Source of the DNA: Bryobacter sp. | Lineage (GTDB): Bacteria > Acidobacteriota > Terriglobia > Bryobacterales > Bryobacteraceae | Direction of reading: 5' to 3' | Assembly (NCBI GenBank): GCA_044340255.1 | Contig: JBIITX010000001.1 | Location: 132,138 to 196,137 of the forward strand | DNA length: 64,000 nt | In this document: positions 1 to 17,000 of the stretch, one piece after another | Position numbering within the stretch: position 1 is the first letter of the stretch | Layout: each line of letters starts with the position of its first letter | Made by a program: the position numbers and the translations under genes | The notes under the pieces: model-generated | What the model was told of the DNA's origin: nothing | What the model saw: the letters and a program-made list of their open reading frames with translations, nothing else | Databases searched by the model: none

Positions 1-1
1 C

Positions 2-274
2 CATCCCGGAGAGATGTTGCTCAAAGAGTTCCTCGAGCCACTCGGAGTTTCGCAGTCCGACGCCGCAGCCCGGATGGACATTCCGTTCCAGCGCCTCAAC
101 GCCATTGTCAATGGCCGCCGTGCCGTAAGTGCCGAGACAGCTCTGCTCCTTCAGGACCTGACGAGATGGGACGCAGAGATCTGGCTGCAATTGCAGGCGA
201 AGTGGGACCTGTGGCACGCCATGCAGGCGCGCCGAATGGGGCCCAAGGTGCGCGCTCTCCCACGAAGCGCGTAG
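2..274 (+). CDS. higA: HigA-family addiction-module antitoxin (HTH), 5'-truncated by the window edge
   Basis: Frame open from base 2: HPGEMLLKEFLEPLGVSQ...RLNAIVNGRRAVSAETALLL...W+.LQAKWDLW, the HigA/VapI HTH signature. Confidence 0.85.
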   Translation, partial: HPGEMLLKEFLEPLGVSQSDAAARMDIPFQRLNAIVNGRRAVSAETALLLQDLTRWDAEIWLQLQAKWDLWHAMQARRMGPKVRALPRSA

Positions 275-448
275 TGTGGCCGGTTGATGTACTATCTTCA
301 GTGGCTGGATTCGCTCTGGCGAGCCCCCATGAGGCTCCCTTCTGGTGCCCTCATTGAAGTCAAATCTGTCAGCCTCAGTGTTACCCATCTGCCCGATTGG
401 TCAGCAGCATTTGGCTAGACCGCTGGCTCTACGGATCTCGCAAATAAC

Positions 449-580
449 TCAAGCCAGAATCGCTCGCACCACACTCCCATGCACGTGCACCGGGTCCGTC
501 ACAATGTTGTAGCTGAAATCATCCGTCTCTCCATAACTCATCCCGGCCTTCACCCCAGCCCCTGCCAAAAACACAGTAAA
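449..580 (-). pseudogene. Displaced 3' end of DUF1501 gene, copy 3 (96-bp in-frame internal deletion)
   Basis: Matches 4592-4819 except for loss of 32 codons; encodes [43 protein letters not shown]. Confidence 0.92.
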
Positions 581-667
581 CGAGTACGCGCTGAGAACCT
601 TCCGCAACGCCCTTTGATGTCCCGTCGCCATGAAACTCTACGCTGTGCCGTTGATGTGGATCTATCC
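581..667. repeat. Cassette end sequence R (copy in unit 2)
   Basis: CGAGTACGC-GCTGAGAACCTTCCGCAA..TGTCCCGTCGC.ATGAAACTCTACGCT.TGCCGTTGAT is shared with 2067-2208 and abuts the same DUF1501 breakpoint. Confidence 0.85.
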
Positions 668-696
668 CAAATCAGGTGCGTCCAAGCTTCCTCGAT

Positions 697-716
697 GGTA
701 CCGCCTGTGGTACCTT
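697..716 (+). promoter_or_regulatory. Probable hicAB operator / -10 region
   Basis: Two GGTACC palindromes (697-702, 709-714) 12 bp apart; the second overlaps a TACCTT -10-like hexamer 7 nt before the GTG start. Confidence 0.45.
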
Positions 717-722
717 CTAGGT

Positions 723-968
723 GTGTCAAACGCGGCGAAGCTGATCGCCAAAATGCGCAGGAATCCGCGCGATTGGCGTATCGAGGATCTGAAGGTGGTC
801 GCGCTCAGCTTGGGCATTGATCATGATCAGCACGGAACAAGCCACATGATTTTCCGACACGCTTCTGCGGGGCGTCTCTCCGTTCCTGCGCACCGTCCCA
901 TCAAGCCAGTGTACGTCCGTCTGTTTGTAGAGTTCGTCGACACCGTAGGTAAAAATCATGAAAATTGA
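723..968 (+). CDS. hicA: HicA-family mRNA interferase toxin
   Basis: GTG start; W..EDL..VA..LG......GTSHMIFRH....RLSVPAHRPIKPVYVR motif (GSH loop); stop overlaps hicB start. Confidence 0.85.
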   Translation: MSNAAKLIAKMRRNPRDWRIEDLKVVALSLGIDHDQHGTSHMIFRHASAGRLSVPAHRPIKPVYVRLFVEFVDTVGKNHEN

Positions 969-1317
969 CAAGTCCCTGATTCAATCCTATCCGTTCACGA
1001 TTCGTCCGCTGTCCGAAGCGGATGGGGGCGGATTTGCTATCGAGTATCCGGACCTGCCTGGGTGCATCTCCGATGGGGAAACCCCGGAAGAAGCCTTGAA
1101 ATGCGGTTCAGACGCAGTCAAGGCTTACATCCTGAATTGCATGAAGCACGGTGAAGCAGTTCCAAAGCCGAGCGCGGCTAGCGGCCAATGGCGGCAGCGT
1201 GTGCCCCGAAGCCTGCACTCTCGGCTGGTCGCCAAGGCCCGTGAGGAAGGCGTTAGCTTGAACACGCTGGTCACCGCGATGATCGCAGAAGGTCTGGGCC
1301 AGCGGCGGGCTTCCTAG
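958..1317 (+). CDS. hicB: HicB-family antitoxin with C-terminal RHH
   Basis: YPFTIRPLSEADGGGFAIEYPDLPGCISDGETPEEAL; C-terminal RVPRSLHSRL..KA..EGVSLNTLV. Confidence 0.9.
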   Translation: MKIDKSLIQSYPFTIRPLSEADGGGFAIEYPDLPGCISDGETPEEALKCGSDAVKAYILNCMKHGEAVPKPSAASGQWRQRVPRSLHSRLVAKAREEGVSLNTLVTAMIAEGLGQRRAS

Positions 1318-1691
1318 CGGCATCGGCACCGCTCCAGAAGGATTGTGATCATAAGTTCTGAAACATCACCTTTCGTGCGACCGGTCGTTCGACGCCTCAT
1401 CGAACGATTGTTCAGCGAATAAGACTGATGGAAGAGTAGCGACCTCGTTGACCGAGTCGTTCAAGCGCATAGCCACGCTGGCGGCTCGGTCGTGCCCAAC
1501 CCCAACTTCACCTCAAAACGGGTATGGAACGATCTCAAAAGTGACGGGTTGGTAACCAGCCATGGAAACGACCGCTCTTGCAACGCTCCAAACCTCAATC
1601 GCCGAGCCGGGCTAACGAAGCGCCAGAGCCAGTTTTGCGTGAATTTATGTGACCGCTGAAAACAGCGGTTGTAAGGAATGATTCCTGCCCT

Positions 1692-1839
1692 GTCGCAGAG
1701 TGTAAAGTTTTCGCCACTGCAGGGACTCAACCTTGCTCAGCGATAGTCCGGTGGGCGCATCGAGACGAGGAACGGACCGCAGCTTCTTCTCTGCTGCGCT
1801 CCTCAAAGAACCTTCCTCACGCGCAACCAACTCAACCCC
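1692..1839. repeat. Cassette end sequence L (copy in unit 2)
   Basis: GTCGCA.AGTGTA.AGTTTT..GCCACTGCAGGGACTCAACCTTGC.CAGCGATAGTCCGG.GGGCGCATCGAGACGA...CTCCTCAAAGAACC...CACGCGCAACCAAC.CAACCCC is shared with 4394-4591. Confidence 0.88.
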
Positions 1840-2066
1840 TCAGGCCAAAATCGCCCGCACCACACTCCCATGTACATCCGTCAGCCGAAAGTGCCGCCCC
1901 TGATACTTATACGTCAGCTTCGTGTGATCAATCCCCAGAATCCGCAAGATCGTCGCATGCAGATCATGCACATGCACCGGGTCCTTCACAATGTTGTAGC
2001 TGAAGTCATTCGTCTCCCCATAACTCATCCCGGCTTCACTCCAGCGCCTGCCAGAAACACCGTAAA
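1840..2066 (-). pseudogene. Displaced 3' end of DUF1501 gene, copy 2 (1-bp deletion)
   Basis: 227 bp nearly identical to 4592-4819; homology stops at TTTACGGTGTTT (minus strand). Confidence 0.95.
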
Positions 2067-2208
2067 CGAGTACGCTCAGATCCGCCCGACTGAAAGGATA
2101 AGCTTCGAATATCACGCCATCCGCCAAAACGCGCTGAGAACCTTCCGCAATCCCCTTTGGTGTCCCGTCGCAATGAAACTCTACGCTATGCCGTTGATCG
2201 TGATCTAC
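2067..2208. repeat. Cassette end sequence R (copy in unit 1)
   Basis: Homologous to 581-667 with an extra ~57 bp block (about 2076-2132). Confidence 0.85.
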
Positions 2209-2260
2209 CTGGCAATCCTTCCCAGAAGCTGCTCCCACCCGTGGTTGGGCCGCTTGCAGG

Positions 2261-4159
2261 TCAACGGCCGCCAATCAACCTCATGGCAGGAACGATATCT
2301 CCATCCACAATCTCGCTGGACCAGCGCCCCCAAATGCCACCCTGGCGGTAATTCCCGCCGGTGAACACGACCGCCAATTCGAGATCGGGAACCACGAGTA
2401 GAATCTGACCCCCATTACCCGTGGCAGTGTAGCTCGGATAGATACGCTCTCCGGAGCGGATACCGCCCAGATGCCAAGCATGGCCATCATCGCTTTCGCC
2501 ATAGGCGTCCCCGAACTGTTCCGCATCAAGGCCGGTCGTGGCGGGCGAGATGTGGACCTGGGGCGCTGTCGATTGCGCCACCCAGGAACGCTCGACGATG
2601 CGCCGTCCGCGCCACGCGCCGCCGTCAAGATAGGCCTGCCCGACCTTCAATAGATCCCTTGGTCGCAGGTATGCGCCGCCGCCCAAATAGCCTTCATCTG
2701 TCGGCATCAAATTCCAATGATAAGGGCCGAATTGCAGGGGGCGGGCGACCGTACGATCGAAAAACTCGGGCAGCCATGTCCTCGTTGCGGTCTTCAGGAC
2801 AGCCCCAACCAGGTTCATGTTCGCCGAGCAGTAGGCATAGCGCGTTCCGGGGTCGTGCGCCATTGGAAGATCCAGTGTGTACTTCCACCAATCCGGCTGC
2901 TGGAGCTGCGACTGCATGGTGCCCTCGTGTCCTGGTGACGCATCGTCGTAGTCGTTACAGGCAAGCCCGGAGGTGTGCGTCATAAGATGAGCAACCGTAA
3001 TCCTTGCCTTCCGCGGATCTGGGTTCGCGAACGGGCCCATGCGCGAGAGCAGGTCGTAGACGCTCGTCTCCGGCGAGACCTTTGCTCCCTGCATCATTGC
3101 GGCACCGAGTATGATCGAGGCAAAGGTCTTGCCGACCGACCGCGTGTCGTGCAGATCATCGCGATGGAAACCGTAGAAATACTCTTCGAGCACAAGCTTC
3201 CCACGATGCGCCACAAGCAGGGAATGTATCAGAGACGGGCGGCGGACGGAGGGATCGGCGGCAGCTAGCCGCCGCACGAGCTTTGTAAGCGCTTCCTCGT
3301 CGATGCCGCCGTCTCGGGCCCGGGCGGTACGCCAACCATCCCCCGTCACCGGCGGGCGACCGTAAACGTAAGGTGCATCGCCCGGAGGACGTGGAAAGAA
3401 ATTGGCTGCCTGTGAGAACGTGCGGCGGGTCAGCGCTATCCTGCGGTCGAGATCGGGCCAGTGAATCTGCAACGTGTCGCGGCTCAGAAGCACTCCTTCG
3501 TGCCGGAACGTGGGCGCCGCAGGGTTGGAGCCGGCGCTGAACCGGACGGCTTTGCCTTCACGCGTCACACGAAACTGCATGGCTCCGCCAACTGAGTTCT
3601 GCTCGGGATTGCGGAACGCCGCGAGCAACGCCCCCTCCGCGTCGCGGAAGATTCGAAGGTAGAGGGTCATAGGGGATTCAAGCGGCCGGACCGTGCCGCG
3701 CCATTTGCCACGACCCGCGCCCTGCAGGACGAGTGGTGTTGCAAACGGTTGGGTCGAGCCGGTGGGGAATCGCGGATCCGCCGATACACCAGGCTGGATC
3801 CAGAAGCCGTCGATAGCCCGCCCTGGGCCTGCCAGCGTGCCACGGAAGCGACCCAGGTTACCGGGGAAGTCGATGAGCACCTCGCGATCGGCTACTTGCA
3901 CGTTAGCTTCGGTGCCTGAGAGCTTCGCCCGCCAGTCTGAACCCTCGCGCACAACAACAAGGTCGCCCCTCAGGCTGACACCGACGTTAGCCTCGAAGGC
4001 CCAGATTCCGATCAGGTCGTCGTCTCGTCCGCTAAACTGATTCGAGCCCTGCGGGCGCGATTCCGTTGCTGCTGGTCGCTCTGTATTGGACTGACTGCTG
4101 GCGTACTGAACAACTGCCATACCTAACACTAGAAGTGAAACCAGAAATCTATTCTTCAC
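2261..4159 (-). CDS. Secreted serine hydrolase, beta-lactamase/AmpC-like fold with N-terminal extension
   Basis: GTG start giving signal peptide [23 protein letters not shown]; SxxK (RSVGKT), [23 protein letters not shown]. Confidence 0.85.
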
Positions 4160-4393
4160 GGGACTTACTCTCCGGTTCTGTGAAATTAAGTCGGAAGAAA
4201 TGTTGGCGGCCCAACTCCTATTTAGGCTGACCTGGACAAATCCGACGCTGGTCGGCCTAGTCCCGCCGTCGCTTCCATATAACCAGAGACTATACCAGCC
4301 TTGGCCAGTCAACACCACATCACATGAGCGAGATGTCGCCAAACAGTCGATGTGCCCGGCCCGGCCGCCAATTCCTTCGATAGATCGCGTGAA

Positions 4394-4591
4394 GTCGCAA
4401 AGTGTAGAGTTTTTGGCCACTGCAGGGACTCAACCTTGCGCAGCGATAGTCCGGCGGGCGCATCGAGACGATGATCGCAGCGCAGCGGCTTCTCTTCTGC
4501 TCTCCTCAAAGAACCCACATCAGATCAGTAGCTTCTCATGCCTCGAAAATCACCGCCCCCACCCCACCCCACGCGCAACCAACACAACCCC
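4394..4591. repeat. Cassette end sequence L (copy in unit 1)
   Basis: Homologous to 1692-1839 with an extra ~50 bp block near the DUF1501 stop. Confidence 0.88.
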
Positions 4592-5938
4592 TCAAGCCAG
4601 AATCGCCCGCACCACACTCCCATGCACATCCGTCAGCCTAAAGTGCCGCCCCTGATACTTATACGTCAGCTTCGTGTGATCAATCCCCAGAATCCGCAAG
4701 ATCGTCGCATGCAGATCATGCACATGCACCGGGTCCTTCACAATGTTGTAGCTAAAATCATCCGTCTCCCCATAACTCATCCCGGCCTTCACTCCAGCCC
4801 CAGCCAGAAACACCGTAAAGCAGCGCGGATGATGGTCTCGCCCATAATCCTCCGCCGTCAGCTTCCCTTGGCAATACACGGTCCGTCCAAACTCACCACC
4901 CCAAACCACCAGCGTGTCCTCAAGCAATCCCCGTTCCCCAAGATCCTCAATCAGCGCTGCCGTTCCTTGGTCCGTATCCCGGCACTGGTTCACAATCTGC
5001 CCGGGCAAGTGGTTATGCTGATCCCAGCCCCGGTGGAACAACTGGATAAACCGCACCCCTCGCTCCGCCAGTCTCCGCGCCATCAAACAATTCGACGCAT
5101 AAGACCCCGGTGTCCGTACCTCCGGCCCATACCGCTTCAAAGTAGCTTCTGATTCCTTCGACAGATCCGTCAACTCCGGCACCGAACTCTGCATCTTGTA
5201 AGCCATCTCGTACTGCGCCATCCGCGTCGCAATCTCCGGGTCTCCCGTCTGCTCCTGCTTCAGTTGATTCAAGGCCGCCAGATCATCCAGATAACTCCGC
5301 CGCGTCGCCGCGCTCACCCCCTCCGGGTTCTTCAAAAACAAAACCGGGTCGCCGTTCGAGCGAAACTTCACCCCCTGATACTTCGTCGGCAAAAAGCCAC
5401 TCCCCCACAAGCGGTCATAGAGCGGCTGGTCTGAGACATTGCCCGTCCCCTGCGAAATCATCACCACAAACGCCGGCAGGTCCTGGTTCTCCGTCCCCAA
5501 TCCAAACGACAGCCAAGACCCGATCGAGGGCCTTCCCGCCAACTGGAATCCAGTCTGGAAAAACGTCACCGCCGGGTCATGGTTGATCGCCTCCGTATTC
5601 ATCGATTTAATGAAACAAAGCCGATCCGCAATCTTCGCCACATGCGGCATCAGGTCGCTCACCCACGCCCCCGATTGCCCCCTCTGCTCAAACCGGAACT
5701 TCGATGGCACCAGCGGAAAGCTCGTCTGGGTCGCGGTCATCCCCGTCAGCCGCTGTCCCCGCCGCACCGAATCGGGCAACTCCTGCCCCAGCATCTTCAC
5801 CAGCGTCGGCTTATAGTCAAACAACTCAAGCTGCGAAGGCGCCCCGCTTTGAAACAGGTAAATCACCCGCTTCGCCTTCGGCGCAAAATCCGTCGTGGCG
5901 GCCATCGCCGCAGTCGCTAAAAATCCGCGCCGTGTCAT
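4592..5938 (-). CDS. DUF1501 domain protein (sulfatase-like, Tat signal)
   Basis: MTRRGFL Tat motif; [45 protein letters not shown]. Confidence 0.93.
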
Positions 5939-8646
5939 TCCCGTGTAATCCCCTCATCAAGGTTCAACAACATACTCGCCACCATCGTATAGGCTGCCAG
6001 CTCTCTCGTGTCCAGCTTCGCATCCCTCGCCGAATCCCCATGCGCCAGCAGATTCTTTGCCGCTTGCGGGTCGGCCTGAAACGTCGCCAGATGCCGCTCG
6101 TAAGCCGCCTTCAAAATGCCTGCTTCCTTGTCATCGGCCTTCCGGCTCGTTACCATCCGAAACCCAGTCCCAATCGCATCCCCACTCTTCATCATCCGTT
6201 CGGCCAGCTTCCGCGAAGCTTCAAGAAACGTCACGTCATTCATCAGGTTCAATGCCTGCAACGGCGTATTCGTTCGAGACTCACGCACCACGCAAGTCTC
6301 CCGTCCCGCCGCATCAAAGTTCGCCATCGTAGGGGGCGGGGAAGTCCGCTTCCAGAACGTATACAGGCTCCGTCTCCAAAGCCCCTCGCCCTGATCCGTC
6401 ACGTAATCAGCCCCGCCAGAGAGTTCCTTCCAGAGTCCCGCCGGCTGATAAGGCTTCACTGAAGGTCCACCCACTTTTTCCACCAATAATCCTGAAACAA
6501 ACAATGCCTGATCTCGCACCTGCCCCGCATCCAGCCGCAACCGCGGGCCCCGCGCCAGTAACCGATTCTCCGGGTCCCGCGCCAGCAATTCCGGGCTCAT
6601 CTGCGAGCTCTGCTGATACGTCTCCGACATCACCATCGTCTTCAGCAGCTGCTTCACATTCCAGCCGCTCTCCACAAACTCCACGGCCAGCCAGTCCAGT
6701 AATTCCGGATGCGTCGGCCACTCTCCTTGCGAGCCAAAATCCTCACTCGTTTTCACCAGTCCGGTCCCGAACAATCCCTGCCACAGGCGATTCACCATCA
6801 CCCGCGCCGTCAGCGGATTCTCCTTGGCCACCAACCAGCGCGCCAGCCCCAGTCGATCATTCTTCTCACCAGCAGGAATCTTGCCAAGAACAGCAGGCAC
6901 GCCCGGTTGCACCGCCTCACCCGGTCGGTCATACGCCCCGCGGATCAGCACATGCGCTGGCAACTCCTTCTCCATCTGCCGCATCACCATCACTGTCGGA
7001 ATCGAATCAACAAACGCCTCCCGCTCGCTCCTCAGCTTGGTCAACACGCCCCACGCAACCTTGTCTTCTGTTTCCAAAAATTGTCTCCGCCGCGCCGCAT
7101 CCCCATTCGCCGTACCCGCCAAAAACCCGACTTCCAACTCACTCAAAACCCGTCCAAAAATCCGAGTCTCCGTCCCACCCAGTCGAATGGCTTCCTTCAC
7201 CACGAAATCCTGGTTCAGTTCATCCACCAGAATCTTCAACTTCTCTGGCTTACCATCCACATAAATCGTCAACCCGGCTGCCAGCTTCGAGCCGTCATAA
7301 GTGAATGCCACATGGTGCGCCTCCCTGACGGCAAACACGCGCTCGGTCTCGACACGTATGGCATCATCAAGCCACCGCTGCACCAGATTCACCTGCAGCC
7401 GCCCCTTATGGATGCGGAAGCTGAAGCCCATCGGCTCCTCACCCTCTACCGTCTTGGCGACAACATCCCCCTCTTGTCCACTCATCCGCGCCGCAATCGT
7501 AAAGCGGTCGGTATAGCTTGGGGCTGCCTTCTCCGTTGCAATCAGGCCGAGGCTCGGCTTCCAGTGCAGCGCTCCCTGGGCCGATCCCTTCTTGAGTCGC
7601 GCCTCTGCTGCCGCAATGGCAAGATCCATCGACTTCAACTTCGCGGCTTGCTCCGGCGTTGGTGCCGAAATGAAGGGCGGCGTATTGCCGTACTTGAAGT
7701 AACGTCCCCTCTCGCCAATATTGTGGAAGTAAGCAAAGAGCTGATAGAACTCCTTCTGCGAAAACGGATCGTACTTATGGTTGTGGCATCGCGCACACCC
7801 AACAGTCGACCCTAAAAACACCGTCGACATCGTCTCTACCCGGTCCGCAGCATACTCCGCCAGATACTCCTCGGCAACGATGCCACCCTCGCCGTTCCCA
7901 CGATGATTCCTCTGAAATCCCGTCGCAATCCGCTGCGACAGCGTCGCATGGGGTAACAGATCTCCTGCCATCTGCTCCACAATGAACTGGTCAAGCGGCA
8001 TGTTCTTTTGGAAGGCTTCGATCACCCAATCCCTCCACCGCCACATCATCCGCTCTCCATCGGTTTGATACCCATTCGAATCGGCATACCGCGCCGCATC
8101 AAGCCACCTCGCTGTCATCCGCTCGCCGTAGCGCGGTGAGCCCAGCAGCCGATCCACCGTTGCTTCATAGCTCTCCACTCGCTCCAGATCTGCCAGCGTC
8201 GGCGGCAGCCCAGTCAGGTCCAGATACACTCTTCGCAGCAGTGTCTCCCGCGCCGCCTTCGGTGACGGCTGCAATCCCTCTTTGGCAAGACGCGCCCGAA
8301 CGAACCCATCAATGCTTTCACCGGCATTGCGCTTGGGCACAACATAAGCCCAGTGCTTCTCCCAAGGTGCCCCAGCCTCAGCCCATTGCGTAAGCGTTCG
8401 TATCTCCAGATCCGTGAGTACCTTGCCCGTATGCTTGGGCGGCATCGTGCGAGACGCAACACGGGCCACAACAGCCTTTCGTGCCGCCTGCGCCGAACTC
8501 TCCTGGTCAAGCCGCAGCTTCCCCGCCGCATCCGTCCCATGGCAGCTCCAGCATTTATCCGATAGGATAGGGCGCACTTCCCGGTTGAAGTCCGGCCCCT
8601 GCGCCAGCAGGGCGCTCGTCCATAAAGCTGTAATCCAGAATCTCAT
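5935..8646 (-). CDS. Planctomycete cytochrome-c / PSD1 (DUF1549) / DUF1553 protein
   Basis: [92 protein letters not shown]. Confidence 0.93.
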
Positions 8647-8665
8647 CACGCTGACGAAGATTCTT

Positions 8666-10408
8666 TCACAGTCTGGGCAGCGGTTGAATAGGGATCTGTA
8701 TGTTGTAAGAGTGTTCCCGCTTGGAGTCTTCATCCACCGCAGCCAGCAGTGCAATCGGCTCACCGTCCGGGCCAAACAAAAGTTGCGGTCGCTCCAGCGA
8801 ATTCACTGTTTTGGTGGTGCCATCCGGCAGCTTGAATTCCGTCCTGCTCACCAGCGCATGTTTCGATAGCTTCCAGTCCAAGCCATCGCCAGACTCCCAC
8901 AGTGCCAGTGACTTTCCAGCCTTTGTGAAGTGCCCATTGTTGTCTTTCACGACAGCGTAGTAGCGCTGCGCGGCATGGCTGTACCAGATGAAGGGGTCTT
9001 CGGCCGGGAAGTCCACTCCGGGTGCCAGAAAGATGGCTTTGTTTTGCTTCGTAAATGGCCCGGTAGGCGAATCAGCCGTAGCCGTCAGATGCACCACCGG
9101 CCCACCAAACGGGAGCGCCCGCTTCCTGCCGACTGCCTTATAAACCATCAATACCCCACCATCCGGGCGCACCGCTACAGACGGGTTCGAAGTCATCAGC
9201 GAATCGGCAGCCGAAGTCTCACTCGTGATATCCAGCACCGGTTGATCGAAGCGCTGCCAGGGCCCATTCGGACTCTCTGCCACAGCCACACCAATCCGTT
9301 GCTGGTTGCGATGCGTCCAGTTCAGCGTCGGCATCCCCACCCCATCACCGGTGTTGCCCATGTAGTAGAGATAGTATTTCGCTCCGATCCGCAAAATCGT
9401 CGGGTTATGAGTACACAAGCCATCCCAATACTCTTTGCCGCGCGCCTTCAAAACAACATTGACATGCCGGAAAGGCCCCGTCGGCGAACTCGACACCGCA
9501 TGCGCAATCTCAGAGTGCGTCACCCACGCATAATGCCCAAGCTTGCGCGGCCATCGTGAATAGTAAAGATGATACTGGCCATCATCCCCGCGAACGGCAC
9601 TCCCACACCAGATGTAGTAATCGGGGTCAATGAATTTCGCCGTATCCGGCAATGGCCCCAGTCGGCTCGACAACTCGAGCTCTCGTATCGTCTTGGTCGG
9701 GGGCACCGCCGCTTCGTAAAATCGAATCCAATCCACCACCGCCTCAGCGGGCAATGCCGCATCCTCGACGCTGGTCGCACCACTCAGCGGAGAAGCGATC
9801 GAAGTAAGCCAGATGTTGGCAGGGGCATTGGCCACCCCCGTGATGTCGATGCTATGAACCAATTGGTCATCCAGATAAAAGTCCACCCGGTTCGGTGTGA
9901 CATTCGCTCCGTAAGTGTGGAACCCTTCCCCCAGGTCGACGCTGTTGATCCGCTTGTAGCCAAACGAAGAGTGCGGCCAGTAATTGTGCCAATTGACACT
10001 GTATGCAGTCGGCCTCACACTGTCCTGCTCCAGGATGTCGATCTCATTGGTGCGATCCTCGCCAACCTGCATCAGCCAGAACGAAGTGTGCCAGCCACGG
10101 GCCTTCGGCGTCCTCAGGCGGGCTTCGTAGTAACCATAGCGGAAGCGTTGCTTCGAAATCACCCCACCCGCCGTATAGTCCAGATCACCTGACTTCTGCC
10201 GCCGCAGCTTCAGCCGCAGCATGCCATCCTCAAGACTGACATTGGCCTCGGTTTGGCGGCTCCAGAATCTCGTATCGAGACGGTAATCCCAACGCGAGCG
10301 ATCCAGCGTTTTCCCGTCGAATTCATCGGCGAAGCGAAGCTGCCATCTTTGGCCGTCCGGAGGGGCAGCCAGCAGCGGAAGGGCCAGCAGGAATAGAAGT
10401 GATTTCAT
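8666..10408 (-). CDS. Secreted bimodular glycoside hydrolase: GH16 plus GH43-like five-bladed beta-propeller
   Basis: F.DEFDG..LD...W, YGYYEAR, NEIDILE (GH16 catalytic motif); second half has HNPTI, SNPSV, EDPFIW, LERPQL. Confidence 0.75.
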   Translation of the reverse strand: MKSLLFLLALPLLAAPPDGQRWQLRFADEFDGKTLDRSRWDYRLDTRFWSRQTEANVSLEDGMLRLKLRRQKSGDLDYTAGGVISKQRFRYGYYEARLRTPKARGWHTSFWLMQVGEDRTNEIDILEQDSVRPTAYSVNWHNYWPHSSFGYKRINSVDLGEGFHTYGANVTPNRVDFYLDDQLVHSIDITGVANAPANIWLTSIASPLSGATSVEDAALPAEAVVDWIRFYEAAVPPTKTIRELELSSRLGPLPDTAKFIDPDYYIWCGSAVRGDDGQYHLYYSRWPRKLGHYAWVTHSEIAHAVSSSPTGPFRHVNVVLKARGKEYWDGLCTHNPTILRIGAKYYLYYMGNTGDGVGMPTLNWTHRNQQRIGVAVAESPNGPWQRFDQPVLDITSETSAADSLMTSNPSVAVRPDGGVLMVYKAVGRKRALPFGGPVVHLTATADSPTGPFTKQNKAIFLAPGVDFPAEDPFIWYSHAAQRYYAVVKDNNGHFTKAGKSLALWESGDGLDWKLSKHALVSRTEFKLPDGTTKTVNSLERPQLLFGPDGEPIALLAAVDEDSKREHSYNIQIPIQPLPRL

Positions 10409-10414
10409 GGCAAG

Positions 10415-13400
10415 TTAGAACAAAAGTTTGAGACCCAATTGTGCAACGCGAGCGTCGCGGGCCGAGAAGATGCCGCCAAAGGTAGCGCTGATGTTCTTGC
10501 CGTCCGGCCCGGGAGAGAAGCCTCCCGCAGGAGAACCCCAATTTACTTTATTCAGGAAGTTGAAGGCTTCAGCGCGAAACTGCAGCGTAAAACGTTCTTT
10601 GAACTTTGTGTTTTTGAGCATCGACAAGTCCCAATTGATCGTCCCCGGCGTTCGCACATCAGGCAATGTGCGGCCAACGTTGCCGAGGAAGAACTCCACA
10701 GGGTTGATAAACGCATCCGTGTTGAACCACCGCGCCCTGGTCGGGTTATCCAGCTTGGCACTCACACCCGTAGAGTCCGGGCGATCCGAAATGAAGTTGT
10801 TGGCGCCACGCACGATCAGCGGCAAGCCCGTCTGCATGATGCCAATCGAGTTCACCTGCCAGCCTCCAATCAACCGGTTCACAAAGCCGCTACCCTTGCC
10901 AAAGGGCAACTCATAAAGCAGCGTGACCGCCATCCTTTGCGAGACATCATTCGGGTCAATCGACCGGTTCAGCTTGCGGTTGAAGAAGCCATCCTGAAAG
11001 CCTGACTCTCCCGTCGCCTCAAACCCGAAGTCATTCGTCGGCGACAGGTTGCTGTCACTCATCTTCTTGCCGCCCGTGTAGGCGACACTCACAAAGAGCC
11101 CCGATTTGAAATTCCTTCGAATCGTCAACTGCAACTGGTGGCTCGTGTAGTTGCCAAGCAATGGGTTCAAGACGCTGACCCCTTGATACTGCGGGTAAGG
11201 CAGCAGTGTTCGCTCGCGCGTTACCGTCGCTGCACCAAGCCCTCCGGGCACCCGGCCTGCCAGTGGATTCGGCAGAATGTCTTGCGAGGATCTACCCAGC
11301 GCGCGCCGCTGGTCCACCGAAAGCTGATTGATGTTATAGCTGCTCGAAGCAAAGTGATTCCTCTTGTTACCGGCATACGCTGCTTCAAAGAACCAACCCT
11401 TCATCTCGTGCTGCAGCGATGCTGTCCATTGCTGCGTCATCGGTGTCGGGCTCTCTTCCTCACGAATCGTTACCCCTTGCCCAAGCAGGGCCCCCACTGC
11501 GGTCGCGCGTCCCGGCACCCCGATCGGCTCAAAAGGCAAACCATCCTGGAATCGAAACGCCCTCCCTCCTGGTGAAAGTGCCGCATAGTTGGTGCTGGAG
11601 GTCGAGAAGAACTGTGTGTTCCCAAAGAATGGCCTCCAGAAGATACTCGGATAAAAGATGCCGTACCCACCGCGAAAGACCGTCTTGCCTTTACCGGTCA
11701 GGTCATAGGCCCAGCCAAAGCGCGGGGCAAAATCGCGATAGCTTTCTCCAAGAAAGCTCCGTGCCTGTCCGCCGACTCCAGCGAAGACGATGGCACCGGC
11801 CAGCCCACTCACGGGGTCTCGCTGTGTCAGATCGAAATTGATTTGCCCGTCATTGCGTTCATAAGGCCGCTGCTGCCAATCCCAGCGCAACCCAAGATTA
11901 AGGGTCAGTCGACGTGTGACCTTCCAATCATCTTGCACAAACGTGCTCCAGCTATCACCCTGAAACGACGCCCCGCTCACACGCTGCGCGTTCGCGCTGG
12001 CCACGTCGCCCAGCAGAAACTGAGCCATCGCCGACCCGGTGCCCGCCGGGTTTTGCGGGTTGGATGTCAGTCCCCCAAAGTTATAGCCTCCACCCAGGTT
12101 CGTTCCCTGTTGGTTGTTGCCTTGCTGCGTTCTAAAATTCACTCCCAGCTTGAGCGAATGGTTGCCAATGATCTTCGTGAACGTGTCCTGAACATCCCAA
12201 TTCATCGAACCGCGAAACCCAAGCGCTCCTCCACCAATAGCTCCAAACCCAAAGTCCATCTGAGGAAAAGCAATCCCAACCATGTTGGCGGGTAGCCCCA
12301 AACGGGAACTCCAGTCGCCAGAGCTCTGCGAGGCAAACGTGAAGGCCTGCCGGTTGATGCCAACTCTTAAGTTGTTGAGGGTCGTTCCCGAGATCGTATA
12401 ATTCCAGGTCGCAACCGCATTGCGGTTGGTTTGGTTGTCGTCTCGTGCATCACCAACAATCTGCTCGGTGAAGATACTCGTATTGAAGGGGTCATGCTGC
12501 GCTTGTGTGTAGCGGACAAAGACACTGTGGCGATCACTCACACGGTAGTCGACACGCCAGTTCCACTGTGTCCAGTCAATCCGTGAAGGGTTGCCATCCT
12601 GATAGTTTTGTTGCTGCGTGAAGTTGTTGATGGCCGGTTTGTTGGGCTGGGGATAAAAAGCCAATATCTTTGGAGTGGCGCGGTCAAATCGGCTTTGCGG
12701 CACAATGTTGCCGGGGAAGAGTGTACGCACCAGACCCGCTCCGCTTGGGTTCTGGATCGTGGTGGCCGGATCAAAAATCGGCACCAGCAAACCTTGTGCG
12801 GTCCGCAGGTTGGAGAAGTTGCCATCGCGCCATTCCTGGATCGGTACCGAGGCGATGCGCGGGGAAGACCTTCTCAGCAGATACCGTTCATAGTTGATGA
12901 ATCCAAAGAGGCGATTCTTGAGGATCGGTGCTCCAACTGCGCCTCCAAACTGGTTGTAGCGCAAAGGGAGCCGCGTCGCGGCAAAGGTGTTGCGAGCGTC
13001 CATCTTGTCATTGCGCAAGAACTCATACAAGGTGCCGCGCACCTGGTTCGTGCCAGACTTGGTCACCAGGTTGATCGCCCCACCCGCTGTGAAGCCAAAC
13101 TCGGCTGACATGGGCCCGCTCTGGACTTTGAACTCCTCCACCGCGTCCACCGCCGGCGGAATCGAGACTTCCCCGACATAGCTCAGTGTGTTGTTGTTTC
13201 CATCAAGCATCTGCGAGTTCAGCGCATTCGGCCCACCGTTGATACTCACCGAAGAGAGGGCAATACCGCGATCTCCAAAGCCCGACTGGGCTGGGCCTGA
13301 ATTCGAGACAACGCCAGCAGTGAGAAAGGTAAAGGCCAGCGCGCTACGCCCGTTGAGCGGTAACTCCTGCAGTCGCCGATTGTCGACCACCTGCCCCAGC

Positions 13401-13783
13401 GTCGCACTACCGGTGTCAACCATCGTGGCCTCGCCGCTGACAGTCACCGTATCAGCCTGCTGCCCCAACTCGAGCCGGATGTCGACGCGGGCATTCTGCC
13501 CGACCTGCAAAGTCACCCCGGAGCGGACGAACTTCTTGAAACCAGTCTGCTCGACGCGGATCTCATAGCGTCCCACGGCAAGGCCGGGGGCAATGTAGTT
13601 GCCACTCTCATTGGTAGTCGCCCGGAACTTCGCGCTCGTGTCCACTTGCACGACATCGACCTTCGCCCCTGGAACCAGCGCTCCTTGCGGATCAGTCACC
13701 GTTCCGGTGATCGTGGCGCTGTCCTGTTGTGCCAATAAGGCGCTACAAAGCAGGAGGGGAAGAATCAGTCTGTTCAGGGACAT
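10415..13783 (-). CDS. TonB-dependent receptor (Oar-like, carboxypeptidase-regulatory N-domain)
   Basis: ITGTVTDPQGALVPGA, LPLNGRS, VEEFKVQ, KSGTN..RG.LYEFLRND..DA, C-terminal QLGLKLLF. Confidence 0.93.
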   Translation of the reverse strand: MSLNRLILPLLLCSALLAQQDSATITGTVTDPQGALVPGAKVDVVQVDTSAKFRATTNESGNYIAPGLAVGRYEIRVEQTGFKKFVRSGVTLQVGQNARVDIRLELGQQADTVTVSGEATMVDTGSATLGQVVDNRRLQELPLNGRSALAFTFLTAGVVSNSGPAQSGFGDRGIALSSVSINGGPNALNSQMLDGNNNTLSYVGEVSIPPAVDAVEEFKVQSGPMSAEFGFTAGGAINLVTKSGTNQVRGTLYEFLRNDKMDARNTFAATRLPLRYNQFGGAVGAPILKNRLFGFINYERYLLRRSSPRIASVPIQEWRDGNFSNLRTAQGLLVPIFDPATTIQNPSGAGLVRTLFPGNIVPQSRFDRATPKILAFYPQPNKPAINNFTQQQNYQDGNPSRIDWTQWNWRVDYRVSDRHSVFVRYTQAQHDPFNTSIFTEQIVGDARDDNQTNRNAVATWNYTISGTTLNNLRVGINRQAFTFASQSSGDWSSRLGLPANMVGIAFPQMDFGFGAIGGGALGFRGSMNWDVQDTFTKIIGNHSLKLGVNFRTQQGNNQQGTNLGGGYNFGGLTSNPQNPAGTGSAMAQFLLGDVASANAQRVSGASFQGDSWSTFVQDDWKVTRRLTLNLGLRWDWQQRPYERNDGQINFDLTQRDPVSGLAGAIVFAGVGGQARSFLGESYRDFAPRFGWAYDLTGKGKTVFRGGYGIFYPSIFWRPFFGNTQFFSTSSTNYAALSPGGRAFRFQDGLPFEPIGVPGRATAVGALLGQGVTIREEESPTPMTQQWTASLQHEMKGWFFEAAYAGNKRNHFASSSYNINQLSVDQRRALGRSSQDILPNPLAGRVPGGLGAATVTRERTLLPYPQYQGVSVLNPLLGNYTSHQLQLTIRRNFKSGLFVSVAYTGGKKMSDSNLSPTNDFGFEATGESGFQDGFFNRKLNRSIDPNDVSQRMAVTLLYELPFGKGSGFVNRLIGGWQVNSIGIMQTGLPLIVRGANNFISDRPDSTGVSAKLDNPTRARWFNTDAFINPVEFFLGNVGRTLPDVRTPGTINWDLSMLKNTKFKERFTLQFRAEAFNFLNKVNWGSPAGGFSPGPDGKNISATFGGIFSARDARVAQLGLKLLF

Positions 13784-13785
13784 AG

Positions 13786-13804
13786 TCTGAAAAATTATTT
13801 CAGA
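13786..13804. promoter_or_regulatory. Palindrome immediately upstream of TBDR start (operator or translational hairpin)
   Basis: TCTGAAA-AATTA-TTTCAGA, 2 nt from the ATG at 13783. Confidence 0.35.
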
Positions 13805-13822
13805 TTTCTGTTGACGTGTCTA

Positions 13823-13854
13823 CAAACGAAAGCCCGGCGATGGCTCGCCGGGCT
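13823..13854 (-). terminator. Intrinsic terminator of tRNA-Arg
   Basis: 10-bp stem AGCCCGGCGA/TCGCCGGGCT, 4-nt loop, TTCGTTT tail on the minus strand. Confidence 0.8.
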
Positions 13855-13860
13855 GATCTG

Positions 13861-13937
13861 TGGTGCACCCGGAGGGATTCGAACCCCCGACCCTTTGGTT
13901 CGAAGCCAAATGCTCTATCCAGCTGAGCTACAGGTGC
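13861..13937 (-). tRNA. tRNA-Arg (anticodon UCG)
   Basis: GCACCTGTAGCTCAGCTGGATAGAGCA-TTTGG-CTTCGAA-CCAAA-GGGTCGGGGGTTCGAATCCCTCCGGGTGCACCA; full cloverleaf with encoded CCA. Confidence 0.96.
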
Positions 13938-14016
13938 AGGAACCTCAAGATTACAACAAAACCGGCAGGCGCGGATCAACGATCGATTGCTGAGTTTAGT
14001 AAATTGGAATGCACTT

Positions 14017-17000
14017 ATGCGAGCGTTCAGTCTGTTGTTGCTTCTTACAGGCCTGAGTCTTGTGGGACAGACAAACCGTGGTTCCCTCAGTGGCTCTGTG
14101 GAAGATTCCAGTGGCGCGGCAATTCCCAGTGCCACGGTGACCATCCGAAATCTGGCTACCGGCCAGGTGATGAAGCTGACCACCTCGCAGGCGGGTCTAT
14201 TCTCTGCGCCTGCGCTCGACCCGGTGGACTATTCAGTTGAGGTGAAGGCTGCCGGCTTCCAGTCCGCGTTGGTGAAACAGGTAAAGGTGGATACCGCAAG
14301 CAGTGCGGCCGTGAAATTGGTCTTGAAGCCACAGTCCGTGGAAACAACTGTCGAGGTGACCGCCACGGCAAGTGCGATCAACACGGAGTCCGGCACTGTG
14401 AGCCACACCATTTCAGAGAGGGACATCCTGAATGCTCCGCTCAGCAACCGCAACGTGATGGAACTGGCGATGGCGATGCCGAACACCACGGGCGACGTTG
14501 GGTCGGAAGACCCGACTGTGGCCGCCACCGTGACCGCGCCCGGGTTCAATGTCAGCCTGAATGGCGGCCGTCCAGGCAGTACCGCCATCCTCGCCGATGG
14601 CGTCAACAACACCGGTGTGGGGCTGGCCCGTGCCATTGCGAATTTCTCGCCAGAAACCGTGCAGGAGGTAACCGTGCAAACCGCCGCGTATTCGGCGGAG
14701 TACGGCAACACCGGTGGCGGAGTCATCAATGCGACAACACGCTCGGGCACAAACAAGCTGGCGGGGACGCTCTTGTGGAATGCGATCAATCCCGCCCTGA
14801 ATGCCGCGCCGTGGACGTTGGCGACCGTAAACCGGCCTCGGGCGACGGCTCGATCCAACCAGTTTCACGCAAGCGTCGGTGGCCCTGTCGTGATTCCAAA
14901 ACTCTACAATGGCCGCAACCGCACCTTCTTCTTTGCGGCCTTTGAGCCCAGGTATCGCGTCGATTATGTGCAGGCCGAAGCCTTGCTGCCAACTGCGGCC
15001 ATGCGGCAGGGTGACTTCAGCGATGCAGTGGCTGTGACTGGCGGTTGGGCTCCGGCCGCCGAAGTCAGGCGCTTTGGCTTGAGCCAACTCCGCGACTCCA
15101 CGATCTACCGGCAATTCGACCGTGTGAACAATCAACTGGCGCGCATCACCCTCGGGCCCGGGCAGACATTCGAGCCGTTCCCAGGCAACCGCATTCCCAC
15201 GAGCTTTCTGGATGCCTCGGCGATGAAGGCCCTCTCGTATCTTCCCGAAGCTGGTTCTTACTTTCTGAACGCCAACGGCCAACTCGTCAACTACCAGGTC
15301 TTGCGCTTTGTCCGCCAGAACGAAAAGCGGGTGCTGGCGCGCTTCGATCACACCCTCAGCCAGAACAATCGATTCAACTTCAGACTTTCCTTTCTGCCTG
15401 TTGTTGGAGAGAAGGGTTTTGGCCATCCAGTCAATGGAAACTACGCCGACTATGGCCAATCCCGTCAGTTGATGATGTCAGACACCCATACCTTCTCGCC
15501 GCGCATCTTGAATGATCTGCGCTTGAACTATACCCGGGGACGTTTCAGCGGCACTCTGACCGAAGAGTTTGATCCCTTGACGGGTCGCAACCTCAATGCC
15601 GAACTTGGATTGCCGAACATCACGCCGGGAGGGATGCCGAGCTTGGCCTTTGAGCTCGGTGCCTTTGGTGGCATTGGCTCAGTGGGCTCGGGCTTGAGAG
15701 AGAACGTGGAGGAACGCTATGGACTCACCGATATTGTGTACTTCACGCGTGGAAACATGTCATGGAAGTTTGGTGTCGATCTCAGCCATGCGCGGATGAA
15801 AACGATGAGTCTCTTTCTTGCTTCGGGAGGTTTGTGGGACTTCCGTTCTCTCCAGACGGCCAGCGGCGGGGCGGCATCATCCGGTGGCATCGGCTTTGCC
15901 AGTTTTCTGCTTGGAGTTCCCAACTCGGTGCAGTTACGAAATGCTGTGATTCCGTATTACTACCGATGGAACAGCTACGCCGCCTTTGTCCAAAACGATT
16001 GGAAGGTGCGGCGAAACTTGACGCTCAACATTGGGATGCGATATTCGTTGCAAACGCCGCGCACAGAGAAGTTCAATCGCCAGGGTGCTTTTCTTCCCGA
16101 ACTGTCACGAGAGTATCCGCTGGCGACGCCGCTCAATCTGCCTGACGGCAGCACAGTAAGTTCAGTCACCGTGCCTCCCTTTGCCTTTAGCGGGGTCGGG
16201 GGCCGCAGCCGCTATTTGACTCCCGTGAACCGGCTCAATTTCGAGCCGCGATTTGGCCTCGCTTGGTCTCCGGGTAAGAAGGTGACCTTGCGCGCGGGTT
16301 ATGGTCTTTCCCATGCGCCGCTGACGGGCAACTCGCGGGCGGCGAATCCAGATTTCACAGTGCCGACTCAGGCCTTTGGGCCGAACTCCGGACAGACCAA
16401 CCCGGACTTTGCGTTGCGCATGTCGAGCAACCCACCACTGCTGACCGCACTGAGTCCAGAACAGGTGATTGCGGCTCCCGCCGACGGGCTTGTCTATCTC
16501 GACAGCATCAATATGGGTGGGCAGGGATTCGTGGTTTCCCCGAATGTTCGCACGCCCTATAGCCAGAACTGGAATGTATCGCTGAGCCGGCCGATTGGAC
16601 GAGGCACGGTGATTGAGCTCTCCTATGTGGGCAATAAGAGCACTCACCTCTTCATGCCAGCCCTCAACACGAATCCGCGCAACTTCCGGTTGATTGATGC
16701 GATTCAAGCGGCCAATGGAGATCCCGATTTGACGGTGAACGATCCTCTGGGGCGACGCACTCCGGCCGGTGCCATTATCCGCGTGCAGCAAGCCACTCTG
16801 GGCAGCACCTATCTTGGCTTCAATCGGTTGCCGATTGTAATGGATTCTTCGGCCAATGCCATCCGCCATGCAGGCTTCGTGAACGTGACTCGCCGCGCAC
16901 GCACTGGCCTGACGCTCACCGGCAACTATACCTTTGGCAAATCGATCGATGATGCCTCCGACGCCGGTACAGATGCGGGCGTGCTGACATCGCCCAGTTC

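Follow-up and report, generated by a model that had tools for sequence, protein, structure and literature searches.

Displaced 3' ends of a DUF1501 gene in a Bryobacter genome: a likely case of serial insertion with surrogate gene ends

We analysed a stretch of 64,000 nucleotides (nt), here called the window, from contig C4 (132138-196137) of a 6.4-Mb metagenome-assembled Bryobacter genome (G000; Acidobacteriota), in which a gene for a DUF1501 protein is followed downstream by two further copies of its own 3' end. The three ends differ from one another almost only at silent sites, which is expected if each copy was for most of its history a working end in some genome. We consider it likely, though with considerable room for doubt, that the array arose by serial Campbell-type insertions into the end of the DUF1501 gene, in which each insertion would have brought a surrogate end and displaced the older one.

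The DUF1501 gene and two extra copies of its 3' end

The intact gene is translationally coupled to the PSCyt/DUF1553 gene upstream of it (5935-8775). The gene, its present end and the two extra copies are located as follows (window coordinates; aa, amino acids).

4592 to 5938, minus strand: intact DUF1501 gene, 448 aa (Pfam DUF1501, E = 1e-157)
4592 to 4819, minus strand: copy 1, the last 228 nt of the intact gene, from codon F374; the current functional end
1840 to 2066, minus strand: copy 2, a displaced DUF1501 3' end of 227 nt with a 1-bp deletion (codon alignment against copy 1)
449 to 580, minus strand: copy 3, a displaced DUF1501 3' end of 132 nt with a 96-bp in-frame deletion; a native-type junction follows

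Copies 2 and 3 both begin at codon F374, behind a segment that we call J (J2 and J3), and copy 1 is intact. Codon alignment of copy 1 with copy 2 gave eight synonymous changes, one non-synonymous change (GAT>AAT, D393N) and the 1-bp deletion after fragment position 32, exactly as a first-pass annotation of the window had counted by eye. For copy 3, where that annotation had listed about eight synonymous changes and one K-to-T replacement, the alignment with copy 1 returned eight and one (AAG>ACG, K401T), with the 96-bp deletion in addition. This deletion is bounded by two 9-bp direct repeats (ATGTGCATG) and fits replication slippage between them. Copies 2 and 3 differ from each other by ten synonymous and two non-synonymous changes. 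A stretch of 114 nt is free of any difference between copies 1 and 2. The coding fragments are 92-96% identical among the copies, whereas J (~90%) and the non-coding segments after the stop codons of copies 1 and 2, called down1 and down2 (88%, with indels), are less conserved. The frameshift in copy 2 argues against function of the fragments in place. Copy 3 is probably the original resident end.

As a side observation, J3 contributes an ATG, by which copy 3 becomes an intact open reading frame (ORF) of 60 aa (449-631, minus strand) with the DUF1501 tail at its end; this ORF is predicted only. A -10-like TAGAGT lies just 5' of it, within the S motif described below.

Silent-site bias in the displaced ends

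Nei-Gojobori estimates of the ratio of non-synonymous to synonymous divergence (dN/dS) were 0.037 for copies 1 and 2, 0.032 for copies 1 and 3, and 0.048 for copies 2 and 3, at synonymous divergences (dS) of 0.16, 0.33 and 0.46, respectively. True orthologues of this DUF1501 gene set the baseline at a dN/dS of 0.018-0.02. The synonymous excess for which the first-pass annotation had proposed a codon alignment and dN/dS comparison is therefore present in all three pairs (dN/dS 0.03-0.05), with binomial P values of 9e-5 (copies 1 and 2), 7e-5 (copies 1 and 3) and 2e-5 (copies 2 and 3). Counted as events, 14 of 16 are synonymous; random hits are expected to be synonymous in a proportion of 0.24-0.33 (kappa 1-8), and the corresponding P is 2e-7 to 9e-6.

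To assign changes to branches, we used L014, an orthologue from another dataset (98% identical in protein and 91% in DNA to the gene studied here). Five synonymous changes and one non-synonymous change fall on the copy 2 branch, and six and one on the copy 3 branch, which makes 11:2 in total (~85% synonymous). In the branch test, 10 of 12 changes were entered as synonymous, and P was 3e-5 to 4e-4. Since the fragments' own branches are biased, the bias cannot be attributed to the lineage of the intact gene alone. Promoterless fragments made by local duplication had been expected in the first-pass annotation to decay without codon bias; the pattern found here differs, and neutral decay of local duplicates is rejected (P ~1e-5), given 24-33% synonymous expected on the fragment branches and a dN/dS near the orthologue level.

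Origin of the copies

Paralogues within the same genome are rejected as a source, because none of its other DUF1501 genes exceeds 78% identity to the fragments. In the DUF1501 3' segment, identity with species-level congeners is 77-88%. We obtained closer relatives from public assemblies, namely L014 (a Logan contig), L048 (a 151-kb JGI contig, fully syntenic) and L050 (an ENA scaffold). The three copies and the functional ends of these three relatives form a star-like set, with 4-13 pairwise differences over 131 common sites, at which copy 1 differs from L014 by 6, from copy 2 by 7 and from copy 3 by 9. Their tree does not settle a branching order (bootstrap 39-51). The dS among the copies (0.16-0.46) is equal to or higher than that between L014 and L048 (0.14-0.21), so the copies are not recent local duplicates. 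Moreover, only one end per genome is under selection at a time, and constrained parallel divergence therefore requires other genomes.

The earlier claim that each fragment was once a functional gene end under purifying selection, probably in other hosts, is supported by the dN/dS close to that of orthologues, by the exclusion of paralogues and by the pair of L050 and L048 presented below. In the tree proposed alongside it, the copies are as far apart as the ends of the relatives, and the three copies cluster weakly. Measured against the relatives, copy 1 has a dS of 0.28 and the gene body one of 0.53-0.58; this smaller distance is suggestive of a present DUF1501 end that was itself imported. 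We looked for a break in identity at nt 1120 in comparisons with species-level relatives and saw no clear step.

Native arrangement and layout of the array

Behind the DUF1501 stop codon of L014 lies the end of a convergent sigma-70/acyltransferase fusion gene (the sigma-factor gene below), and the same gene end occupies this position in L048. In the present genome the sigma-factor gene ends at C4:131004, 5.7 kb from DUF1501 and 1.5 kb beyond the window start, and cassettes with a beta-lactamase-fold gene, HicAB and HigBA lie between the two convergent genes. Read in the DUF1501 direction, the order is copy 1, down1, an S site, cargo A, an inverted S site, J2 and copy 2, then down2, an S site, cargo B, an inverted S site, J3 and copy 3, and finally a 48-nt displaced sigma-factor end, HigBA, a 149-aa ORF and the intact sigma-factor gene. 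The parts other than the three copies are listed below.

4413 to 4591, minus strand: down1, non-coding DNA of the cassette behind the stop codon; 88% identity to 1708-1839, interrupted by indels
4381 to 4412, unstranded: S site of cargo A, gene-proximal; AAACTCTACACTTTGCGACTTCACGCGATCTA on the minus strand, inverted repeat of 2176-2207
2208 to 4380, minus strand: cargo A, beta-lactamase-fold serine hydrolase gene (Pfam Beta-lactamase, E = 7e-30)
2176 to 2207, unstranded: S site of cargo A, far side; AAACTCTACGCTATGCCGTTGATCGTGATCTA on the plus strand
2067 to 2175, minus strand: J2 (2129-2175), common to J3, and a 62-bp extra segment (2067-2128)
1681 to 1839, minus strand: down2 and the gene-proximal S site of cargo B (S site ~1681-1712); AAACTTTACACTCTGCGAC / AGGGCAGGAAT
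665 to 1680, plus strand: cargo B, HicA-like toxin and HicB antitoxin genes, opposite in orientation to DUF1501
581 to 664, minus strand: S site of cargo B, far side (633-664), and J3 (581-632)
400 to 447, plus strand: displaced 3' end of the convergent sigma-factor gene, encoding ...WLDRWLYGSRK and the stop
1 to 399, plus strand: part of cassette C, with the HigA antitoxin gene (14-274); HigB and the 149-aa ORF lie upstream (C4:131005-132137)

Copy 3 is followed by 48 nt of sigma-factor gene end, which retains the native junction; segment 400-447 matches the end of the intact sigma-factor gene at 29 of 35 nt. The boundaries of J2 with copy 2 and of J3 with copy 3 fall at one and the same nucleotide, with ~90% identity between J2 and J3; such a common junction would fit one platform that carried different cargo. 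J2 and the S site next to it make up a repeat (2129-2207) that has 90% identity to 586-664. Neither down1 nor down2 is present 3' of the DUF1501 gene in any relative examined. As the sigma-factor gene end takes this place in L014 and L048, down1 is not native downstream DNA.

The down region matches no known RNA: searches of 1-6000 with Rfam (E up to 1) and ARAGORN returned nothing. The down sequence (4411-4540 and 1708-1830) belongs to a small intergenic repeat family in this genome, with further members at C57:8754-8894 and C43:106292-106346 and the core ...CATCGTCTCGATG.GCCC..CGG.CTATC...GGTTG.GTCCC.GCAG.G. The 62-bp segment between J2 and copy 2 has imperfect direct repeats, TCTCAGCGCGT and TCTGAGCGT, at its edges, and may be the remnant of another junction or a tiny insertion. 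We also considered J as a remnant of the sigma-factor gene end; the match is weak (P ~0.03 for J2, and not significant for J3), and this origin was discarded. A metagenome scan with the conserved J 22-mer hit one unrelated locus (three contigs) with only 22-23 nt in common, which we treated as chance.

The same locus in relatives

L050 (ENA ERZ28613002) represents the state before insertion: the stop codon of its working DUF1501 gene is followed by a 70-nt segment (down'), an S site and a cargo gene. L048 and L050 are 97% identical across the gene, and the block of down', S site and cargo is 98.6% identical over 803 nt. In L048, this block sits behind a 2.8-kb insert and is joined to a 64-nt duplicate gene end with a 26-nt J' before it. 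The insert itself includes a second unit of J', fragment, down' and S site and a PIN toxin-antitoxin pair, and L048 has two 66-nt displaced DUF1501 ends. The two sequences form a before/after pair, with the same block on a functional end in L050 and on a displaced fragment in L048.

The convergent partner shows the same silent-site signature. Directly behind the working DUF1501 end of L048 lies a displaced sigma-factor end of ~100 nt (about 16520-16626), which differs from the working sigma-factor end by four synonymous changes and one non-synonymous change. Together with the displaced end at 400-447 of the window, this means that both convergent genes have surrogate and displaced ends. The whole L048 region between these two genes (12568-16627, JGI 3300071641) holds the PIN toxin-antitoxin pair and ORFs of 304, 184 and 69 aa.

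A search of nine congeners for displaced fragments found none. In every congener (loci L002-L012, genomes G003-G018), different DNA begins within a few nt of the DUF1501 stop codon, often with an antitoxin-like gene, and one genome (G016) has an empty site, at which the stop leads straight to an HbpS-like gene. The DUF1501 3' locus is an insertion hot spot across the genus.

Three metagenome contigs (L051-L053) show a different event at the same gene, in which an orthologous DUF1501 is cut to an N-terminal stub of 38-56 aa, followed by an SMC_N/AAA_23 gene of 570-576 aa. Small proteins in the same 90% clusters (P0186, P0187) are such stubs, and we set them aside as unrelated.

Proposed history of the array

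In the history that we propose, DUF1501 would have stood back to back with the convergent sigma-factor gene in the ancestral state. The entering units would have been small and free of a recombinase gene, each made up of a gene-end copy, non-coding down, cargo and J. In a Campbell-type insertion, a DNA circle and the chromosome join by one crossover and the shared segment is duplicated; here, the crossover between a unit and the resident gene would have fallen within the gene's last 228 nt. The incoming copy would become the new functional end, so that the gene stays intact, and the old end would be shifted downstream and truncated at the J junction. To judge from the junctions, copy 3 would be the original end, still abutting the native junction, copy 2 would have arrived with the HicAB unit, and copy 1 with the beta-lactamase-fold unit. 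Were a unit to be excised, a crossover downstream of fragment position 33 would, to judge from the sequence, yield an intact gene.

The frameshift, the 96-bp slippage deletion and perhaps both amino-acid changes may be decay that followed displacement. What the sequences themselves show is the silent-site bias, the native junction beside copy 3, the before/after pair of L050 and L048, the lack of a recombinase gene and the discrete nature of the cargo. We infer the order of events, the circular form of the units and the nature of the crossover, which would be RecA-dependent homologous recombination or the work of a site-specific recombinase acting in trans. Homology-driven exchange is favoured because of the 114-nt identical tract (P ~0.02), the homoplasy at synonymous sites 6, 18 and 63, and the differing junction positions (228 nt before the stop in G000 and 66 nt in L048). 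A second and separate layer is the exchange of cargo at the ~32-nt inverted S sites.

S sites and exchangeable cargo

The edges of the cargo are imperfect inverted repeats of ~32 nt, AAACTCTACGCTATGCCGTTGATCGTGATCTA and its partner AAACTCTACACTTTGCGACTTCACGCGATCTA. The pair at 2176-2207 and 4381-4412 is 72% complementary over 32 nt, and cargo B is bounded likewise. A block containing cargo A (2189-4404) recurs on the metagenome contig L025 (444-2659; JGI 3300050210) with 98.6% identity and unrelated flanks, where its neighbours are an extracytoplasmic function (ECF) sigma-factor gene, BrnT/BrnA and a PNKP ligase gene. Within both S repeats, the homology with L025 breaks off. On one side, two outer and two inner half-sites are combined around the core CACTNNGCGAC in all four possible ways (L025, contig C21 of this genome, cargo A, cargo B), which is the pattern expected of recombination within the S site.

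The S motif, AAACTCTACRCTNYGCCGTTGATCG (~25-32 nt), occurs as inverted pairs at the cargo edges (2176-2207 and 4381-4412; 633-664 and about 1681-1712). Solo motifs with unrelated flanks were seen at C31:84119-84143 and C21:87086-87137 of G000 and in other Bryobacterales genera. In several genomes, a conserved small gene on the opposite strand starts within a few nt of the motif, which lies 5' of it, and the S motif could also be a promoter or an operator. Among 301 genomes of the family, eight have the 25-nt motif, against none for a reversed-pattern control, and a species-wide scan returned six records. Since the motif is present in so few genomes of the family, it is not the chromosomal dif site. 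By eye, too, S sites are unlike dif: there is a weak 6-6-6 dyad (TCTACG CTATGC CGTTGA) and no clear 11-6-11 arrangement.

As for the cargo genes, the mechanical ORF of cargo A spans 2261-4420 (719 aa), and other annotations give 619 aa. In cargo B, the HicA-like gene ends at 968 and probably starts near 721 (weak Pfam HicA match), and HicB occupies 958-1317 (HicB_lk_antitox, E = 7e-11); HicB proteins at least 90% identical to it are encoded on many contigs elsewhere. A palindrome 5' of the HicA-like gene, GGTACCGCCTGTGGTACC (690-712), is kept in distant HicAB loci (L026-L035) and is likely an operator. The HicAB homologues of other Bryobacteraceae (78-84% identical) were discarded as parallels, being without S sites and without DUF1501 context.

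Taken together, these observations invite a broader but tentative idea, to which we would give rather less than even chances: Bryobacter may have a two-layer cassette system without a recombinase gene of its own, in which cargo is swapped at S sites and platforms with surrogate ends are stacked. In its first layer, S sites, found only in Bryobacterales, may support swapping between loci in the manner of dif modules, though within the chromosome of an acidobacterium and at sites that are not dif; the enzyme would be a host or trans-acting recombinase. In its second layer, the platform may carry a surrogate end of a housekeeping-type gene, perhaps also one of its convergent neighbour, so that cassettes could pile up between the two convergent genes and neither gene would be damaged.

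Alternative explanations

Several observations weigh against the history of serial insertion. Neither the array nor the 14 kb beyond it contains an integrase or other recombinase gene, and the corresponding locus of eight congeners has none either; searches of L048 and L050 likewise found no integrase. The 64-228 nt of homology are short for RecA-dependent integration. A copy 2 or copy 3 allele serving as the working end was found in no sampled genome. The three copies, besides their weak clustering, have five states in common that are not in L014, L048 or L050, so that the donors would be unsampled close kin of this genome and not the relatives used here. The functional end of L048 leads into the native junction, with no down segment, and the L048 array needs extra steps, or entry via the sigma-factor gene end. 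The link of copy 2 to cargo A occurs only in the source assemblies (one, or two related). Finally, gene conversion from the resident genes of former hosts would give the same silent-site signature without literal displacement.

This last point leads to the alternative that deserves the most attention, although we regard it as unlikely: the units (S, J, fragment, down, S) would be passengers that never served as functional ends, and their fragments would have been overwritten by gene conversion from the DUF1501 gene of each host. It would account for the identity of copies 1 and 2 over 114 nt in which L014 differs at 7 sites (chance ~0.02), the S sites are real exchange points, and the 66-nt fragments of L048 lie away from the gene and almost match the resident end. 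However, the native junction at copy 3 is predicted by displacement and not by a passenger origin, the non-native down1 stands directly behind the working end, and L050 has the fragment-down'-cargo block on a working gene.

We also think it improbable that the units are lambda/e14-type integrative elements which have lost their integrase, are mobilisable in cis and accreted in tandem, with the integrase supplied in trans. This would be a sub-case of the insertion model that differs only in the chemistry of recombination, with J plus S and down plus S as attP-like arms and the core in the gene end. The identical J-fragment junction of two units agrees with it, and the middle unit resembles a full attP-type hybrid and the last one an attR beside native DNA. 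The genome has eight tyrosine recombinase matches elsewhere, seven of them above the family cut-off, but none is linked to J, down or S, and no instance, including L048, L050 and the congeners, has a linked integrase. The junctions lie at different distances from the stop in G000 and L048, and crossovers inside S sites are not expected of arm-type sites.

It is very improbable that the array is a tandem duplication made locally or a chimera assembled from co-existing strains. In favour of this, the genome comes from a metagenome assembly, no sampled relative is nearer to any copy than the other copies are, and contigs of other runs end within copy 2, where a repeat of at least 31 nt lies. Against it, neutral decay is rejected, the joining of strain variants cannot make J-fragment junctions, three other assemblies are 100% identical across copy 3, J3, HicAB, down2 and the start of copy 2, and the relative L048 has the same kind of array. 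These assemblies are two Logan contigs from other runs and one ENA contig, which run from the sigma-factor gene into copy 2; the Logan contigs end ~30 nt into the stretch common to copies 1 and 2, and the ENA contig ends at the copy 2 stop codon. The first-pass argument against misassembly therefore holds for the half of the array from the sigma-factor gene to copy 2, seen in three independent assemblies, but not for the link of copy 2 to cargo A.

Discussion

Serial insertion with surrogate ends has its closest known case in e14 and phage 21 at the icd gene of E. coli, where an element enters the 3' end of a protein gene and brings a replacement end. Prophage e14 lies between icd and icdC, a C-terminal pseudogene, and its excision alters icd mainly at synonymous sites (PMC13626634, which cites Hill et al. 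1989). As in the Bryobacter array, the old end is a truncated downstream pseudogene and most differences between the two ends are synonymous; at icd, a working chimeric gene results when the element is lost (PMC13626634). However, e14 is a 15-kb prophage with its own integrase, whereas the units here are 1.4-2.7 kb and without a recombinase. Here, moreover, the arrangement is tandem, with two displaced ends, the cargo is toxin-antitoxin and hydrolase genes, the host is an acidobacterium and the target is DUF1501.

Elements mobilised in cis and accreted in tandem are familiar from the integrative and conjugative elements of Streptococcus and from islands at trmE, guaA or tRNA genes. They share with the present array the stacking of integrase-less elements with att-like repeats at one gene end, but here no cognate integrase-bearing element was found at the site in any genome examined, and the junction positions vary.

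For the S sites, the nearest comparison is with the dif modules of Acinetobacter plasmids, which carry small cargo, often toxin-antitoxin or beta-lactamase genes, between inverted sites of ~30 bp and have no recombinase (PMC13141974, PMC6449649, PMC6160057). In both, the same module occurs in different contexts, homology ends inside the sites and neighbouring modules alternate. Unlike these modules, S sites are not dif-like, are chromosomal and are restricted to Bryobacterales, and dif modules have no gene-end copies. Integrons and attC clusters without an integrase offer a likeness in their arrays of promoterless cargo, in which toxin-antitoxin genes are frequent and inverted repeats mark the edges of the cargo. 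We nevertheless rejected an integron cassette, because there is no GTTRRRY/RYYYAAC core and no IntI, and cargo A stands in L025 without J-fragment-down or an attC-like unit.

In kind, the array is known: an integrative element that brings a surrogate gene end. What is unusual is that it is integrase-free and tandem, occurs in Acidobacteria and has exchangeable cargo bounded by sites. Divergence confined to silent sites in dead gene fragments is a molecular fossil, which records repeated import from related genomes and the order of arrival. The short recombination-site motif is directly testable, and if the S-site system is real, it extends the idea of dif modules beyond Acinetobacter plasmids. 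In a phylum whose mobile-element biology is poorly known, the DUF1501 locus is a hot spot in soil Acidobacteria for toxin-antitoxin and hydrolase cassettes without a linked integrase.

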